Part shown: positions 9,784 through 13,521 of the stretch, piece after piece
Layout: every line of letters begins with the position of its first letter
How positions within the stretch are numbered: position 1 is the first letter of the stretch
Assembly: GCA_023266895.1 (NCBI GenBank)
Contig: JAHFOI010000013.1
Span: forward strand, 1-28,657
DNA length: 28,657 nt
Direction of reading: 5' to 3'
Source of the DNA: Candidatus Woesearchaeota archaeon
GTDB lineage: Archaea; Nanobdellota; Nanobdellia; Woesearchaeales; ARS49
Notes under the pieces: generated by a model
What the model saw: the letters and a program-made list of their open reading frames with translations, nothing else
The model's database searches: none
Told to the model about the DNA's origin: nothing
Program-made: the position numbers and the translations under genes

Positions 9784-10455
9784 ATCAGCACGCACACTAA
9801 GAGCTTTTGAAGCCTAAAACGTTTTTTATTCTGGCATTATGGAAGAAAGAAGTCTTTCTCTCACTTTTTGTTTATCTTTTGTAAAAAGTTCAACAATTAA
9901 GCACAAAAATAACGCTCGCAACATGGTGCCTAACACTTTTTCAACCCAAATCTGTGATTTTTTCATCCAGCACCCACCCCAAACCAGCCAACTCAAAAAA
10001 AAAGAACTCAGTGTAAAATTTTTCTTAAAAAAAACACTCACTTTTGCAGAACAACAAACTGCGCAAAGAGACAACACGCAGCACCCATCACCACCACTAC
10101 CACCACCCACACAAAAACACACCAAAAAAGTTCTACACCCACAACAAACAGAACAATCTGCCAAAATACCCTAATTTATGAGCAAGCCCGCAGATCTCAA
10201 AAACACCTCACAAAGCAAGACAGAACAAGCACTCACTTTTTACTCACACAACACCAAAAGCCCACCCAAAAAAAAGATTGCAAACCATTGAAAATAAACT
10301 CAAAAAGAACTAATAAAAAACATCCATCCCAAAGCTACCATCACGAAAATGAGCTGACAAAATAATTATGCTAAAAGAACTGTAAGCAAATATCTCTTGC
10401 AAAATAAGCACTACAGAAAATAGCCCCAAAAAAAATCCACAAAACATAAACCGTC

Positions 10456-10965
10456 AAAAATTCCGACGTAAAAACAAAAACATAACCCCAAAAAATTAAT
10501 TTTGCCAACAAAGTAAGAATATAAAAATTAACAAAAAAAAGCTCAAAAGCACAACAAACAACAATAAAATAATAAGTATATGATATATCTTTTTTAAAGG
10601 TCAAGAATCATGCAGAGATTATGCCAGAACAAACATTTCTGCAAAAAACTAAGTCTTCTGGCACAACTCCGGCCAAGTCGGAATAAAAAGAGAATTAGTT
10701 AAAAAATCCCGACAAAACAGGTGAAGCCCCTTTTTGGACAGTACCCAGGTTCCACACCAAAACAACTCCTTTGCTGCAAAAACTAGAGAGAACAAGAACA
10801 ATGTCAGGATTTTCTCAGAAATCAGTAGTGTTTACGGCCATTTCGGAATTTGTTCAAGTTTTTGCCAAGGTTTTAGTCAAGCCACAAAAAAAGTCTTGTG
10901 CAACAGCTCCTAATGCAAAAATCACTTGTTTTCTGCTTTTTTTGACGACTGATGTCGGAATTTTA
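10456..10965. repeat. Cluster of short GTCGGAATTTT-like motifs in both orientations
   Basis: Five copies were read by eye. They are 10456-10467 (-, GTCGGAATTTTT), 10677-10688 (+, GTCGGAATAAAA), 10701-10713 (-, GTCGGGATTTTTT), 10842-10852 (+, TTCGGAATTTG) and 10954-10965 (+, GTCGGAATTTTA). A degenerate copy GTCAGGATTTTC lies at 10803-10814. The first copy sits on the far side of a very AT-rich stretch (about 10486-10600) from the other copies. Confidence 0.6.
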
Positions 10966-11000
10966 AAAACATTTTTATACCAGTTCTTGTTTGCAAAAGT

Positions 11001-11516
11001 ATGAAAGTGCAACTTGAGCATAAAGAGCCTGGTGATAATGCAACAGCTGATGAACTTGCAAAAGTGTTAATCACGCGATTTGGTTTAGCTCCAAGAAAAA
11101 GTGATGCGAGTGCACAATTTCATCGCTTGCTTCTTGAACTTTCTGAACGTAAAAAGTCTGCAAATCGTGACAAACGTCCTGAAGTTGCCGTCATGCCTGT
11201 TGAAGTAATGGGTTCTTTTGCTGGCATTCGTCGACAAACAATGTATGACTATTTGCATCGCTGGCTTGACTTGCAGATTTTGAAAAAAACAAGTTTTGTT
11301 GCATCAGGCAAAGTGATTATTGGATACGAACTCAATGGTCAAAATATTGAAGGTGCATTTCGCAAAGCTGAAACATGCATTAAGAATCATTTAGATGCTA
11401 GTTTTAAGCTTGTGGAACAGCTTCAGTCAGAGGTAAAAAAGGAAAAGCTTAGGGCTGGAACTCCTGATGAGTCTGAAACCCCTGAATCCACTGTGTCAAC
11501 TGGCAGTCTGCCTTGA
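11001..11516 (+). CDS. Small putative winged-helix DNA-binding protein
   Basis: This is a 171-aa ORF. The central segment MPVEVMGSFAGIRRQTMYDYLHRWLDLQILKKTSFVASGKVIIGYEL reads as helix-turn-helix plus a beta wing. The tail is acidic and Ser/Thr/Pro-rich. A TATA-like TTTTTATACC lies about 25 nt upstream. I recognise no specific family. Confidence 0.5.
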   Translation: MKVQLEHKEPGDNATADELAKVLITRFGLAPRKSDASAQFHRLLLELSERKKSANRDKRPEVAVMPVEVMGSFAGIRRQTMYDYLHRWLDLQILKKTSFVASGKVIIGYELNGQNIEGAFRKAETCIKNHLDASFKLVEQLQSEVKKEKLRAGTPDESETPESTVSTGSLP

Positions 11517-12018
11517 TCACATTGTGTTTTGCTTGTTGTTCGCGAAATTCTGGACTAAGTTGAGCATATGCTCGCGTGCTATCATATTTTTTAAGAACAG
11601 GCACGTGTTTTGTGACAAGTGCTGCAAGGGTTGCTGCAAGCACCTCTCTGCTAAGCCCGCATTTTGTCGCAATTTCTTCACAGCTCACCCAAGGCCTGGT
11701 TTTTCCTAGCAAAAAAAGTGTTTGGCACACGGTTTTTTCTCGACGAGTAAGCACACCAATAACTGGTGTTGATTGATTGAGTGTAAGGGCAAGCCGTTCA
11801 ACAAGATGCTGCACATTATCAAGCTTAGCTTCAAGAGCATTGAGAAATTCAAAAACTGTTTCTATTTCAGTAGTGTTTTCATTAATCGTTTGTCTGTGGT
11901 CATCAAGCTCTTCACGCATGCCATCAAACACCTGCTTTATGATGCTACTTTCTGAAATACTAAGTAGTTGCTGTTCTGTAATGCGTACCACCCCTTGAGT
12001 GTCGTGCATGGGTTTCAT
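11449..12018 (-). CDS. Coiled-coil protein with C-terminal winged-helix/HTH domain
   Basis: This is a 189-aa ORF. The N-terminal heptad-like helix is DDHRQTINENTTEIETVFEFLNALEAKLDNVQHLVERL. The C-terminal HTH is LTRREKTVCQTLFLLGKTRPWVSCEEIATKCGLSREVLAATLAALVTKHVPVLKKY. An SD-like GAGGTAA lies 8 nt before the ATG. Confidence 0.55.
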   Translation of the reverse strand: MKPMHDTQGVVRITEQQLLSISESSIIKQVFDGMREELDDHRQTINENTTEIETVFEFLNALEAKLDNVQHLVERLALTLNQSTPVIGVLTRREKTVCQTLFLLGKTRPWVSCEEIATKCGLSREVLAATLAALVTKHVPVLKKYDSTRAYAQLSPEFREQQAKHNVIKADCQLTQWIQGFQTHQEFQP

Positions 12019-12130
12019 AGTGTTACCTCATGACAACAACCAAAATTTGGGCAACAGTGCTTGCTTATATTCTTTTCGGTTCACATTTTTTTATCGACGA
12101 AAAAAAGTGCCAGAACACCTACACCCCCCC

Positions 12131-12140
12131 AAAAAAAAAA
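12131..12140 (-). terminator. Oligo-T (T10) tract immediately after the stop of the 252-aa gene
   Basis: The minus strand reads TGA-AGAC-TTTTTTTTTT-GGGGGGG starting at the stop codon (12147-12145). Oligo-T tracts act as archaeal termination signals. Confidence 0.5.
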
Positions 12141-12144
12141 GTCT

Positions 12145-12903
12145 TCACGGATGCTTGCGTGTCTGCAGGTACACCTTATTTTTTCCTTCAGCAAGTACCG
12201 TGAGTGATTCGTCATGTTCTAATTCTTCTAAGAGCCTGTAAAAACTGCTTTTTGAGCACAATCCTTGTTCATCAACAATGGTTTCTCTGAGTTGTTGTCC
12301 TGATATTTTTCCGTATTTTTGAATTAAGCTAAGCAGTAATCCTTTAACATATTCTTTGCTGTTTTGCGTGAGTTTTTTCAGTACTTTTTCCTTAAATCTG
12401 CTCACTTGTGAAGTTCGTGTTCCTGGTTCAAATTGAGGCATAACAGAAGCTGTAACATGAGCCATGCTTTCTTGATGAACAAGATGCTGATTATGAATCT
12501 GTTCATCATGAATGCGTTCTTCATGCATGCGTTCTATTTGTGTGCGGATTGTGCGCAATTGCTGAGGTAAATCTTGTAGTTTAACATCAATTTGTTCTAC
12601 TTTTGCGCGTTGGAATTCTAAAAGACTTACTTTTTGTTCAATAAGTCGTATTCTTTCGTTCATCCCTTCATAATCATACAAGCCGTCAATAAGTAGTTTC
12701 ACATCATTGCGTGTTTTTGGCACTTGCTCAATTTGACGTCGGAGTTCTTCAATAATTCGCCCTTGCTCTTGACGTTGCTGGTCCAGATACATCACCCATT
12801 GCCCAAGTGTTACTATATCGCTTTTTACTCTGTCAAAACTCTGTGTTGCATTGCGATCAAACAGCTCCAATCGTGCATCAATTTCTTTCTGAAAAAACCA
12901 CAT
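12145..12903 (-). CDS. Long coiled-coil protein with C-terminal winged-helix domain
   Basis: This is a 252-aa ORF. About 150 aa is heptad-rich and Gln/Glu/Arg-rich (EELRRQIEQV...LEFQRAKVEQIDVKLQDLPQQLRTIRTQIERMHEE). The winged-helix region follows: KGLLLSLIQKYGKISGQQLRETIVDEQGLCSKSSFYRLLEELEHDESLTVLAEGKNKVYL. The promoter abuts the TGGGAC repeat array. Confidence 0.55.
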   Translation of the reverse strand: MWFFQKEIDARLELFDRNATQSFDRVKSDIVTLGQWVMYLDQQRQEQGRIIEELRRQIEQVPKTRNDVKLLIDGLYDYEGMNERIRLIEQKVSLLEFQRAKVEQIDVKLQDLPQQLRTIRTQIERMHEERIHDEQIHNQHLVHQESMAHVTASVMPQFEPGTRTSQVSRFKEKVLKKLTQNSKEYVKGLLLSLIQKYGKISGQQLRETIVDEQGLCSKSSFYRLLEELEHDESLTVLAEGKNKVYLQTRKHP

Positions 12904-12922
12904 CTTTGCCAGAAAATATTCA

Positions 12923-12934
12923 GTCTATTTAAGC
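12923..12934 (-). promoter_or_regulatory. TATA-like box for the 252-aa coiled-coil/wHTH gene
   Basis: The minus strand reads GCTTAAATAGAC about 25 nt upstream of ATG 12903. This is the spacing seen at most genes in the window. Confidence 0.45.
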
Positions 12935-12940
12935 TTTTTG

Positions 12941-13088
12941 TCATTCCCAAACTCATTCCCAGGACAGTCCCAAGACCATCCCAGGACTATTTTGGGACTA
13001 TCTGGGACTGACTTTAAGACGACAAATCTCATTCCCAGAGACTATAATGGGACTGAACTGGGACTGTCCCAGGACAGCTCTGGGACTA
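12941..13088. repeat. Dense phased array of TGGGA(C)/(G)TCCCA sites (iteron or operator-like)
   Basis: TGGGAC occurs on + at 12993, 13003, 13048, 13059 and 13081. TCCCA (the same core on -) ends at 12949, 12961, 12972, 12983, 13037 and 13071. The longer unit TCATTCCCA occurs three times (12941, 12953, 13029). The palindrome GGGACTGTCCC lies at 13060-13070. Neighbour spacings are 10-12 bp or 22 bp. Confidence 0.8.
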
Positions 13089-13145
13089 ACCGAATTTCTT
13101 GCAAAAAATGCGCAAAACTGTCAAAAAACAAACAAGCCCACCCTA

Positions 13146-13173
13146 ACACACACACACACACACACACACACAC
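13146..13173. repeat. (AC)14 dinucleotide microsatellite
   Basis: There are 14 uninterrupted AC units in intergenic DNA. Confidence 0.95.
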
Positions 13174-13521
13174 AAAAATTCAAAACAGCTAACCAAATCA
13201 TTTATAAACAAGAACTACTTTCAAAAGCCGGGGAAATAAGGGTAAGAGCAGTTAAATAAATTACACAAAAACCAAAAACTGTCAAAGCAACTAAATTTAA
13301 CTGCAATACGCCAAGCAATGATCAATCAGCACCAGGCTTATTCAAGGAACGTAGCCTGCAATTCCCGTAGCAACCAATGCCCAACAAACCCTAAAAAAAC
13401 AAGCTTTAAATCAGCCACACTATCAAAAGTGAGAGTTCACACTACAAAAAACACCAAAAACAAAGTCTCAAAATAGTGCCTAACCACTTTTTAGAGTAAT
13501 ACAAAGAAAGATTTGGTCAAA

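Follow-up and report, generated by a model that had tools for sequence, protein, structure and literature searches.

A candidate self-regulating module of small DNA-binding proteins and short repeated sites in the Woesearchaeales

Introduction

In the parC-ParR system of plasmid R1, the parMR promoter is surrounded by ten iterons of 11 bp, and the tubC-TubR system of pBtoxis carries iterons of 12 bp. ParR is a ribbon-helix-helix protein and TubR is a winged-helix protein. Among the Lrs14/AbfR and MarR-like regulators, autoregulation via sites near their own promoters is common. RacA of Bacillus subtilis binds ram sites, and WhiP is a winged-helix initiator at Sulfolobus oriC3. In addition, Sso10a-type proteins have been discussed as architectural proteins (PMC4941522).

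In this report, we describe a segment (positions 9784-13512) of a 28,657-nt stretch of DNA from a Woesearchaeota archaeon, hereafter called the window. A first-pass annotation had proposed that this segment is a replicon-like or integrated element. Most likely, it is a lineage-specific self-regulating module rather than a plasmid-like replicon or an insert. We assign a probability of roughly 0.55 to the reading that it constitutes a chromosomal, Woesearchaeales-specific module in which three predicted sequence-specific DNA-binding proteins are encoded together with their predicted operators.

A conserved chromosomal locus encoding three small proteins

The segment carries three genes, here called A, B and C, which together account for 1777 of its 3729 nt (47.7%). 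The remaining 52% comprises non-coding tracts at 9784-11000 (1217 nt), 12019-12144 (126 nt) and 12904-13512 (609 nt), which agrees with the earlier description of the segment as about half non-coding. The dense housekeeping neighbourhood described at the same time is also apparent, with nearby genes identified as those for a DRG GTPase, PAC2, a small-domain methyltransferase, RpoL, Rpr2, GAPDH, RNase HII, SMC and DNA ligase. The GC content of the segment is approximately that of its surroundings.

The gene order g176-RpoL-(methyltransferase)-C-B-(A)-...-PAC2 is shared by 80 species-level Woesearchaeota/Nanoarchaeia genomes, whose contigs at this locus reach 969 kb. Gene C is next to gene B in 79 of 81 loci, and both are almost universal in the order. 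Of the 81 loci, 46 contain A, 72 RpoL, 70 g176 and 52 PAC2, without any change in gene order or orientation. In relatives, the DRG GTPase and SMC genes of the window are not syntenic.

Gene C (12145-12903, minus strand) encodes a protein of 252 aa in which a disordered linker joins a long helical hairpin to a C-terminal winged helix. In its AF2 model (pLDDT 84.6), long helices span residues 2-60 and 78-145, followed by the linker at 144-167 and the winged helix at 167-247. The best structural match to this DNA-binding domain is the winged helix of Hop2 (2mh2). The predicted recognition helix, CSKSSFYR, is invariant in the 73 of 81 sequences where it is readable, with no variant seen. Gene B (11449-12018, minus strand) is convergent with gene A, with a 68-nt overlap, and encodes a 189-aa protein that has a coiled coil at its N terminus and a C-terminal HTH. 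The coiled coil, which includes an invariant ELDDH..INENT.E motif, yields sub-threshold matches of coiled-coil type. The C-terminal half of the family gives similarly sub-threshold matches to HTH_24, HTH_11, Sigma70_r4, GerE and TrmB, and the part of the HTH corresponding to the recognition helix is variable.

Gene A (11001-11516, plus strand) encodes a 171-aa protein composed of a winged helix, a long C-terminal helix (residues 116-151 of the AF2 model, pLDDT 87.6) and a disordered tail. It retains 60-74% identity across species, and its recognition helix, RQTMY.YL.RWL, is invariant. The best structural matches are Lrs14/AbfR, MarR-like and other small archaeal wHTH regulators (PDB 1sfx, 3r0a, 6cmv and 2d1h), for which Foldseek returns E-values of only 1e-3 to 1e-2 and TM-scores of 0.35-0.63. 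By structure comparison, the winged helices of both A and C are of the type found in transcription factors. None of the three proteins matches a Pfam or NCBIfam model at its cut-off. These results uphold the initial view that each protein has a winged-helix or HTH region, that two of them (C from its modelled helices and B from its sub-threshold matches) have long coiled coils, and that none belongs to a nameable family.

A phased iteron array upstream of gene C

An array of 11 TGGGA/TCCCA cores in both orientations, with a spacing of mostly 10-12 bp, is located at 12945-13085. On the plus strand, TCCCA cores occur at 12945, 12957, 12968, 12979, 13033 and 13067, and TGGGA cores at 12993, 13003, 13048, 13059 and 13081, giving gaps between successive cores of 12, 11, 11, 14, 10, 30, 15, 11, 8 and 14 nt. 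The rest of the window predicts only 0.11 cores for this interval (Poisson P = 9e-19), and seven of the nine TGGGAC matches in the 28.6-kb window fall within 12967-13086. The array consensus is A-[C/T]-A-[G/T]-TCCCA-[A/G]. A TCCCA array of 5-29 copies lies directly 5' of C in 74 of 80 relatives, and C is present without a detectable array in six. The TGGGAC repeats first noticed on the right flank are both non-random and conserved. Within the 1.005 Mb sampled, which covers only about 16 kb around the locus per genome, there are only six other TCCCA clusters, three of them inside the C coding sequence. Separately, a metagenome-wide scan for arrays or sites elsewhere gave output that was overwhelmed by unrelated satellites.

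Among 986 sites, the spacing between same-orientation cores peaks at 11 bp (210 pairs), with 70 pairs at 10 bp and 22 at 12 bp, and longer spacings include 34 pairs at 22 bp and 20 at 33 bp. The proximal edge of the array is situated at a median of 43.5 nt (about 44) 5' of the C start codon, directly upstream of the BRE/TATA. In the window, this promoter element is read from the sequence as AAAAAGCTTAAATAG at 12925-12939 on the minus strand, 22-36 nt 5' of the ATG. It is the same in the close relative L082, and equivalent TATA boxes are found in other relatives. Identity to L082 is 78% in the array compared to 50% in the adjoining spacer (13090-13470), which is A/C-rich, includes an (AC)14 microsatellite at 13146-13174 and is not conserved in sequence. 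The central gap of the array (13012-13027) holds TTTGTCGTCTTAAAG on the minus strand, a degenerate copy of the palindrome TTTATCGTCGATAAA that 44 of 81 regions carry within the array.

Another palindrome, TTTATCGACGAAA, is located in the C-B intergenic region (12090-12102), where it lies upstream of a TATA-like element of gene B. It is an instance of a motif that is widespread in the lineage, with 145 TTTATCG(T/A)CGATAAA-like sites in 1.005 Mb, of which 40 are upstream of C and nine are in C-B gaps.

We assign the iterons to C because its invariant CSKSSFYR helix matches the invariant TCCCA core, whereas the HTH counterpart in B is variable. Given that recognition helix and core are both invariant, there is no covariation by which the pairing could be proved. 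Presumably, C proteins line up on the 11-bp-phased iterons along the same face of the DNA helix, and the resulting cooperative nucleoprotein complex would end right at the BRE/TATA. This complex might control transcription of C and B and, possibly, that of the divergent methyltransferase-RpoL unit. B, which is an obligate partner of C, could act with it through their coiled coils or, alternatively, could bind the TTTATCG(T/A)CGATAAA palindrome. For the module as a whole, the pairing of proteins with sites is an inference, as are cooperative binding, whether regulation is positive or negative, and any targets at other loci. Arrays of up to 29 sites over approximately 450 bp far exceed the need of simple autoregulation, which hints at a structural or chromosome-level role.

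Repeated sites upstream of gene A

The regulatory region upstream of A (10561-11000, plus strand) includes GTCGG[GA]A sites and, at 10972-10979, a BRE/TATA with the sequence TTTTTATA. It shares 68% identity with L082, compared to 46% for the distal part, and contains conserved blocks in 22-24 species. It does not form a structured RNA, given that the RNAalifold consensus has zero pairs. The distal spacer, which extends from PAC2 to this region (9784-10560), differs from its L082 equivalent by many indels and is not conserved in sequence. It is A/C-rich on the plus strand (GC skew -0.43 to -0.49, AT skew up to +0.50), is unstructured (RNA fold z-score -1.2) and has no match in Rfam.

Four GTCGG[GA]A sites are present upstream of A in the window. 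A distal, exact copy of GTCGGAATTTT is located at 10457-10467 (minus strand). The next two, GTCGGAATAAA at 10677-10687 (plus strand) and GTCGGGATTTT at 10703-10713 (minus strand), form an inverted pair that recurs in relatives (at about -346 on the plus strand and -316 on the minus strand in L066). GTCGGGATTTT is the consensus form, which is present in 38 of 43 upstream-A regions. The last is GTCGGAATTTT at 10954-10964 (plus strand), which adjoins the BRE/TATA 47 nt 5' of the ATG, and many relatives carry a site at a matching place (-47 to -94). When one mismatch is allowed, GTCGGAATTTT is found at 10457 (minus), 10703 (minus) and 10954 (plus), with one unrelated match at 19723.

Within the window alone, this left-hand repeat family, which had been recognized at the outset, is weakly significant; its conservation upstream of A in relatives indicates that it is real. 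Over the 500 nt that precede A, the sequence GTCGG[GA]A[AT][AT] occurs 4.24 times per kb, compared to 0.055 times per kb elsewhere (77-fold), and it falls to the background level (0.068 per kb) at the equivalent place in 32 loci that lack A. The sites have fixed offsets, two of them 104-105 nt apart. This enrichment, its loss where A is missing, the fixed offsets and the invariant recognition helix are the reasons for assigning the sites to A. A is a winged-helix protein of the Lrs14/MarR-like kind with a presumably dimerising C-terminal helix, and might control its own promoter by binding GTCGG[GA]A(T/A)(T/A) sites with DNA looping. The 104-105 bp between two of the sites corresponds to about ten helical turns, and one site adjoins the TATA box of A.

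Alternative interpretations

The array might instead be a control region for divergent promoters (methyltransferase-RpoL-g176 and C-B) that is bound by a factor encoded elsewhere, with C, B and A merely being regulated. We consider this unlikely, although in one relative (L047) the array occupies the whole 272-nt divergent intergenic region, and both TAGTGCCTAA and TTTATCG(T/A)CGATAAA, also found in these gaps, are clearly genome-wide elements. In most loci, the array is near C and 300-600 nt away from the divergent gene. Moreover, within the approximately 1 Mb sampled, it occurs only beside C apart from the six other clusters, and the wHTH gene with the invariant recognition helix adjoins the invariant motif.

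Similarly unlikely is the proposal that the array marks a unique centromere-like or chromosome-organising landmark, where C and B, with their coiled coils, would assemble into a large complex that serves in segregation, tethering or SMC loading, in the manner of ParR-parC, TubR-tubC and RacA-ram. Autoregulation would then be a by-product. The size and strict 11-bp phasing of the array are closer to those of plasmid centromeres than to ordinary operators, the coiled coils are long, there is one array per sampled region, and C and B are nearly always present in the order. However, no gene for ParA, ParM, TubZ or another NTPase is conserved nearby, and neither the DRG GTPase nor the SMC gene of the window keeps its place in relatives. 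The array also always adjoins the C promoter, which regulation alone can explain.

There is very little to suggest a chromosomal replication origin, in which the iterons would be initiator-binding repeats around the central palindrome and one winged-helix protein a lineage-specific initiator. Repeats in both orientations do flank a central element, with winged-helix proteins encoded alongside and A/C-rich, low-GC tracts nearby. However, no Orc1/Cdc6 or MCM gene is present within 10-15 kb in the window or L082, each iteron is 11 bp long with a core of 5 bp, unlike the ORB elements of 20-35 bp, and the GC skew keeps its sign across the module, both in the window and in 32 of 42 relatives. The supposed AT-rich tract is in fact a strand-skewed, A/C-rich spacer (GC 0.30-0.38, skew to -0.49), and no symmetric AT-rich unwinding element separates the repeat blocks. 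A and C have a single winged helix each rather than the tandem pair typical of Cdt1/WhiP or RepE.

A function at the RNA level, with the array or the A/C-rich spacers transcribed as a protein sponge or non-coding RNA, is similarly improbable. The array arms are partly inverted (12957-12983 and 13048-13074, 74% complementary), and 12935-13028 gives a weak sub-threshold Rfam match. That match, to mir-BART19 at 26.8 bits with a cut-off of 100, represents a chance hairpin. The array is upstream of the C TATA box and thus outside the C transcript, the spacers are neither structured nor conserved, and the upstream-A region lacks a consensus structure.

Finally, the reading as a remnant of an integrated plasmid or virus, or as a captured replicon of the iteron type, can be discounted almost completely despite the high non-coding share, the repeats and the proteins without assigned family: the synteny in 80 species and the unremarkable GC content argue against it, an integrase, a flanking tRNA and a Rep gene are all absent, genes for Rep_3, Orc1/Cdc6, ParA/ParB and integrase are found neither in the window nor in L082, and relatives of C and A are missing from 2.9 million viral contigs, as are those of C from 72,556 plasmids. 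The first-pass reading of a replicon-like or inserted segment gives way because the same genes, with their own flanking repeats, occupy the same place in about 80 species. PAC2 and the methyltransferase gene, whose adjacency elsewhere was to reveal an insertion, are adjacent in no relative examined, and therefore there is no hint of insertion between them. What endures is its fallback of an undescribed maintenance or regulatory system, given that the proteins lack a curated family and that both repeat families are conserved cis elements linked to the genes of the module.

Comparison with known systems

The self-regulating module favoured here resembles iteron replicons (RepA/RepE, Rep_3) and archaeal oriC regions (ORB with Orc1/Cdc6, WhiP) in having repeated short sites beside winged-helix genes. 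Unlike those systems, it has no tandem winged-helix initiators, Rep_3 or Orc1/Cdc6 gene, unwinding element or skew switch, and the locus is not mobile. Protein C is similar to RacA, Sso10a and Hop2-Mnd1 in having both a single winged helix and a long coiled coil. However, no sequence similarity to these proteins was found for C or B, the domain order is reversed such that the coiled coil of C and B is N-terminal, and the predicted binding sites are phased 11-bp iterons at a single promoter.

Protein A shares with Lrs14/AbfR and MarR-like regulators a winged helix followed by a long helix, which is dimerising in those proteins. It differs in its unusual conservation across the order (60-74% identity), in an extra N-terminal helical segment and in having no Pfam or NCBIfam model at threshold.

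As in parC-ParR and tubC-TubR, short iterons spaced by the helical repeat are located directly 5' of a gene for a small DNA-binding protein, which would be expected to coat them cooperatively and to autoregulate. No partner NTPase (ParM, TubZ or ParA) is encoded here, in contrast to those systems, and the C locus is chromosomal and conserved across an order, with iterons in both orientations that are all upstream of the TATA box. C is a winged-helix protein like TubR and unlike the ribbon-helix-helix ParR, and it differs from both in also carrying a long coiled-coil hairpin.

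A sparsely coding three-gene module in a housekeeping neighbourhood

The window comes from the chromosome of a Woesearchaeota-type (DPANN) archaeon and is a housekeeping region. Its genes include those for SMC, a prolyl oligopeptidase-family (S9) peptidase, RNase HII, GAPDH, a DRG GTPase, PAC2, a small-domain methyltransferase, RpoL, Rpr2, CDP-archaeol synthase, a helicase, and DNA ligase. Two tRNA genes at 21931-22025 (minus strand) and 24012-24107 (plus strand), 93-96 nt long, are scored as tRNA by Rfam, while ARAGORN cannot assign the first and misses the second; both probably contain introns. 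Proteins g176 and g411, encoded at 14575-15105 and 15147-16382, respectively, both on the minus strand, are two more that lack any family match.

Between PAC2 (9040-9783, plus strand) and the methyltransferase gene (13513-14187, plus strand) lie gene A (11001-11516, plus strand, 171 aa), gene B (11449-12018, minus strand, 189 aa), and gene C (12145-12903, minus strand, 252 aa). Together, the three genes occupy 47.7% of the segment from 9784 to 13512. The remainder is non-coding: A is preceded by a tract of 1217 nt and C by one of 609 nt, and the gap separating C from B measures 126 nt. The first-pass annotation, which described sparse coding, three wHTH/HTH genes, and two repeat families, was thus correct in all but one particular, in that its ‘AT-rich tract’ is in fact an A/C-rich, strongly strand-skewed spacer. 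There are two such spacers on the plus strand (9950-10570 and 13090-13470), with GC skew reaching -0.49 and AT skew reaching +0.50, and both are unstructured. In the close relative L082 the corresponding spacers look likewise A/C-rich by eye in the alignment, and their sequence is not conserved. A perfect (AC)14.5 microsatellite is located at 13146-13174. L001, an independent Logan assembly that covers the same sequence, stops there, indicating that this repeat breaks short-read assemblies.

Three ORFs in the A/C-rich tracts (9826-10164 and 10371-10604 on the minus strand, 9839-10174 on the plus strand) were rejected as genes because the alignment of these tracts to L082 is poor and contains many indels. 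Genes A and B are convergent, and the stretches that encode their disordered C-terminal tails share 68 nt (11449-11516). An overlap of 10-67 nt is present in 30 of 45 relatives, as judged by the ends of tblastn hits.

Conservation of the locus across relatives

Relatives were collected by scanning an alignment of C against one genome per species in GTDB, which yielded 189 confirmed loci, 80 of which were kept; with L001, the set comprises 81 loci. All 80 relatives are Woesearchaeota/Nanoarchaeia MAGs, some carried under other labels, on contigs of up to 969 kb. Searches by tblastn with the window proteins revealed a fixed order: g176 - RpoL - (methyltransferase) - C - B - (A) - variable genes - PAC2. 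Among the 81 loci, B adjoins C in 79, and A, RpoL, g176, and PAC2 are present in 46, 72, 70, and 52, respectively. Protein g176 is syntenic with RpoL in 70 of 81 loci. Protein g411 gives weak, sub-threshold Pfam matches only and is also found in L082. In that genome C is 67% and A 88% identical to the window proteins, the gene order is the same, and the non-coding gaps are similarly long at 663 and 1246 nt. The module is rearranged in a single relative, L064 (JBAZLJ010000003.1), where B lies upstream of C and on the other strand, and PAC2 and g176 have exchanged sides. This locus has no array of TCCCA repeats upstream of C, and carries a 6-copy cluster 1 kb downstream of the C start.

Proteins C, B, and A fall outside curated families

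None of the three proteins reaches a Pfam or NCBIfam cut-off, and their profiles return nothing significant against PDB sequences, where coiled-coil noise and weak HTH matches were the only hits. Family models for MarR, Lrs14, and TrmB leave A and B under the curated cut-offs, with no NCBIfam match. Paralogy among the three was also considered, but they are not detectably related to one another (hhalign probabilities <5%).

The AlphaFold2 model of C (pLDDT 84.6) contains long helices at residues 2-60 and 78-145, which a disordered linker connects to a winged helix at the C terminus. The structures closest to this model are the Hop2 winged helix, Fur, ArsR/PadR/MarR proteins, and the cullin WHB domain, with E values of ~2e-3 to 5e-2. 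More than 570 relatives were found, and nearly all of those with a source name are labelled Woesearchaeota. The predicted recognition helix, CSKSSFYR, is invariant wherever it is readable (73 of 81 sequences).

Protein B combines an N-terminal coiled coil, which bears a nearly invariant ELDDH..INENT.E motif, with a C-terminal HTH that is variable, unlike the recognition helix of C. Its best Pfam matches (HTH_11, 13.5 bits; WH_RGF3, 15.1 bits) lie below the curated cut-off, and the HTH regions of other family members give only sub-threshold matches to HTH_24, HTH_11, Sigma70_r4, GerE, and TrmB. An exhaustive HMMER search found 780 cluster representatives, with lengths of 139-222 aa in all 150 listed. 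A TATA-like box that appears to belong to B itself is present in the window, preceded by a palindrome at 12090-12102 and located downstream of an oligo-T run that follows C. Because SMC is encoded in the window, C and B were also considered as kleisin/ScpAB or ESCRT-III-like proteins. These readings were rejected, as SMC is not syntenic in the relatives; the window proteins have no Pfam match to ScpA or ScpB.

In the model of A (pLDDT 87.6, pTM 0.76), a helix of 35 residues follows the winged helix. The nearest structures are small archaeal regulators (1sfx, 3r0a, AbfR2/Lrs14 (6cmv), and ST1889), the TFE-alpha winged helix, and MarR proteins, with E values of 1.6e-3 and weaker. The top Foldseek matches, to 1sfx, 3r0a, AbfR2, and the TFE-alpha winged helix, lie at E 1.6e-3 to 1e-2 and TMt 0.45-0.63. 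Matches to viral structures are to generic wHTH domains only, and no Cdt1 match occurs among the top 50 structural matches of A or of C. The best Pfam match of A, HTH_Crp_2, scores 14.3 bits against a cut-off of 27. There are 268 relatives at E <= 0.001, with 60-96% identity to A among the 120 listed, and the recognition helix RQTMY.YL.RWL is invariant.

A helically phased TCCCA array precedes gene C

The window has nine TGGGAC sites, seven of them within 12967-13086. The core TGGGA/TCCCA occurs 11 times in 12945-13085, mostly at intervals of 10-12 bp, compared with 0.11 copies predicted from the rest of the window (P ~1e-18). In most relatives, GTCCCA, CTGGGA, TGGGAA, or ATTCCC is the most frequent 6-mer over the 600 nt that precede C. 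When an array is defined as at least five TCCCA/TGGGA cores within 150 nt, 74 of the 80 relatives carry one upstream of C, with 5-29 copies. Only six other core clusters are present in 1.005 Mb, counts that cover ~16 kb around the locus per genome; three of these are within the C coding sequence and one is in the rearranged L064.

From 986 sites, the iteron consensus is A-[C/T]-A-[G/T]-TCCCA-[A/G]. The units are 11 bp long with a 5-bp core and occur in both orientations. Neighbours in the same orientation are most often 11 bp apart (210 cases), followed by 10 bp (70), 22 bp (34), 12 bp (22), and 33 bp (20), so that the spacing is one helical turn. The array spans a median of 248 bp and ends a median of 43.5 nt before the C ATG, directly against a recognisable BRE/TATA. 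Identity between the window and L082 is 78% in the array versus 50% in the neighbouring spacer. Arrays are larger in genomes with A than in those without it (median 14 versus 8 copies, P = 3e-8).

Metagenomes were also scanned for four TCCCA cores spaced exactly 11 bp apart; of the 80 loci listed, 77 were unrelated, most of them satellite-like repeats. The Woesearchaeota matches among those listed (L119, L149, and L162) all have the array upstream of C. Covariation between the C recognition helix and the iteron core is precluded, since both are invariant.

Sites at fixed positions precede gene A

A second motif, GTCGG[GA]A, is associated with A. In the window, sites of this type are found upstream of A at 10457 (minus), 10677 (plus), 10703 (minus), and 10954 (plus). 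The motif is present in 38 of 43 upstream-A regions, where its positions are fixed at about -380, -345 (inverted), -272, and -50 to -90, with the first and third sites 104-105 nt apart. Its density is 4.24/kb in the 500 nt upstream of A compared to 0.055/kb elsewhere, and in the 32 loci without A the corresponding position has only the background density (0.068/kb). The region contains further conserved blocks, and its identity to L082 is 68% over the proximal 440 nt versus 46% over the distal 777 nt. A structured RNA upstream of A was considered and rejected, as RNAalifold found 0 pairs and no consensus structure.

Lineage-wide motifs near the module

Two other motifs were considered as parts of the module and set aside, because both are lineage-wide intergenic or promoter-associated motifs. 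The first, (A)TAGTGCCTAA, is located in the window at 9926-9933, 13476-13483, 13753-13760 (minus), and 15089-15096, and the methyltransferase ATG at 13522 follows one copy at a distance of 37 nt. There are 230 copies in 1.005 Mb of Woesearchaeales loci, where ~31 are expected, with peaks 500-1000 nt upstream of C, beside the start of the divergent gene, and 700-1700 nt upstream of A. The motif often has a TATA box before it and an ATG 10-25 nt after it, and it may therefore be a lineage-specific initiator or 5′-leader element.

The second is the palindrome TTTATCG(T/A)CGATAAA, of which there are 145 copies in 1.005 Mb at many intergenic places. It occurs within the iteron array in 44 of 81 regions, in nine C-B gaps, and ~1.0-1.4 kb upstream of C; examples relative to the C start are -170 in the locus L005 and -1038 and -117 in L009. 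The palindrome in the C-B gap of the window (12090-12102) is TTTATCGACGAAA. The motif resembles a binding site for a general regulator of the Woesearchaeales lineage that acts as a dimer.

Proposed function and alternatives

The simplest account, to which we assign a probability of roughly 0.55, is that the two motif families serve as operators, each for the winged-helix protein encoded beside it. The iterons are assigned to C on the basis of its invariant CSKSSFYR helix alongside an invariant TCCCA core, while the HTH of B is variable. The GTCGG[GA]A sites are assigned to A because its recognition helix is as invariant as the motif, which vanishes with gene A. Phasing at 11 bp would set successive C molecules on one face of the DNA and, given the coiled coil, this predicts cooperative coating that halts at the BRE/TATA and could thereby control C and probably B. 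The 104-105-bp spacing of the A sites, about ten turns, suggests that A bound there might loop the DNA. We infer all of these binding steps of C and A. The module is, by these predictions, a set of autoregulated winged-helix regulators with iteron operators, unusual in array size, phasing, and order-wide conservation.

Control of both divergent promoters by an unlinked factor is unlikely. A centromere-like or chromosome-landmark role of the array also seems improbable; what gives it some weight is that an array of up to 29 sites is larger than autoregulation needs. In its specific form, which we regard as a long shot, the TCCCA array and the coiled-coil/winged-helix pair C-B would constitute a single chromosomal landmark of Woesearchaeales, centromere-, tether-, or SMC-loading-like and working without a dedicated NTPase. 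If true, this would be a previously unknown kind of archaeal chromosome-maintenance element; we know of no such element in the Woesearchaeales lineage.

A replication origin is very improbable. The initiators of iteron-type plasmid replicons (RepA/RepE) have two winged helices in tandem; Rep_3 has no match at E<=1 to A, B, or C, and the models of A and C have one winged helix each. Rep_3-type replicons carry direct 17-22-bp iterons beside an AT-rich unwinding element, whereas the iterons here are 11 bp in both orientations and the flanks are A/C-rich and strand-skewed rather than AT-rich. As for the inverted ORBs and unwinding element of an archaeal oriC, no AT-rich core lies between the repeat blocks. 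No AAA+/Cdc6 domain protein is encoded in the 28.6-kb window or within 10 kb on either side in L082, and no gene for Rep, Orc1/Cdc6, ParA/ParB, or an integrase is nearby in either. Across the module, the GC skew keeps one sign in the window, as it does in 32 of 42 relatives, which is suggestive evidence against an origin, archaeal skews being weak.

An RNA function is similarly doubtful, the A/C-rich spacer folding no better than shuffled sequences and Rfam matching only tRNAs elsewhere in the window, apart from two sub-threshold chance matches in the module region. A mobile element is hardly credible for a segment with only three ORFs and no integrase, 8 kb from the nearest tRNA, present in all 80 relatives, and with a GC content (0.37-0.45) like that of the remaining window; a set of 2.9 million viral contigs contains no relatives of C or A, and 72,556 plasmids contain none of C.

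The proposal of a replicon-like or integrated element is therefore refuted by the lack of viral relatives of C and A, of plasmid relatives of C, and of replication, partition, or integrase genes, by the matching GC content, by the absence of a skew switch in the window and most of the relatives compared, and by synteny in 80 species, the outcome that the first-pass annotation had itself named as refuting. Its fallback, an undescribed regulatory system, is supported and sharpened by the absence of a curated family and by the finding that both repeat families are conserved cis elements. Repeats plus winged-helix genes in an archaeal genome need not mean a replicon.

Significance and comparison with known systems

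Woesearchaeota and other DPANN archaea are uncultivated, with small genomes and few recognisable regulators, and to our knowledge almost nothing is known of their gene control or chromosome organisation. The locus provides three order-wide protein families without curated assignment together with predicted cognate DNA sites, one set of which is an unusually large, helically phased iteron array. Recombinant protein and synthetic DNA would suffice for a direct test of each protein-site pairing, with no need for cultivation. Should the array turn out to do more than serve as an operator, this group would gain its first candidate chromosome landmark.

Among the known systems compared, Rep-iteron, oriC/ORB, ParR/TubR, and integrated elements each differ from the locus in at least one defining feature tested. 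Protein A appears to be like the Lrs14/MarR-type archaeal regulators, and in fold only. Proteins C and B are reminiscent of chromosome proteins that combine a winged helix and a coiled coil, namely RacA, Sso10a, and Hop2-Mnd1, but the domain order is reversed and there is no sequence similarity. R1 parC-ParR has 11-bp iterons, and TubR, which binds tubC, is a winged-helix protein. What the locus has in common with ParR-parC and TubR-tubC is helically phased iterons upstream of the adaptor gene (11-bp mode, ending ~44 nt before the C ATG, in 74 of 80 relatives). However, the motor NTPase gene (ParM, TubZ, or ParA) is absent, and the only conserved neighbours are B, A, the methyltransferase, RpoL, g176, and PAC2. 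These plasmid iteron centromeres and operators are the functionally nearest analogues of the present locus, which is chromosomal.
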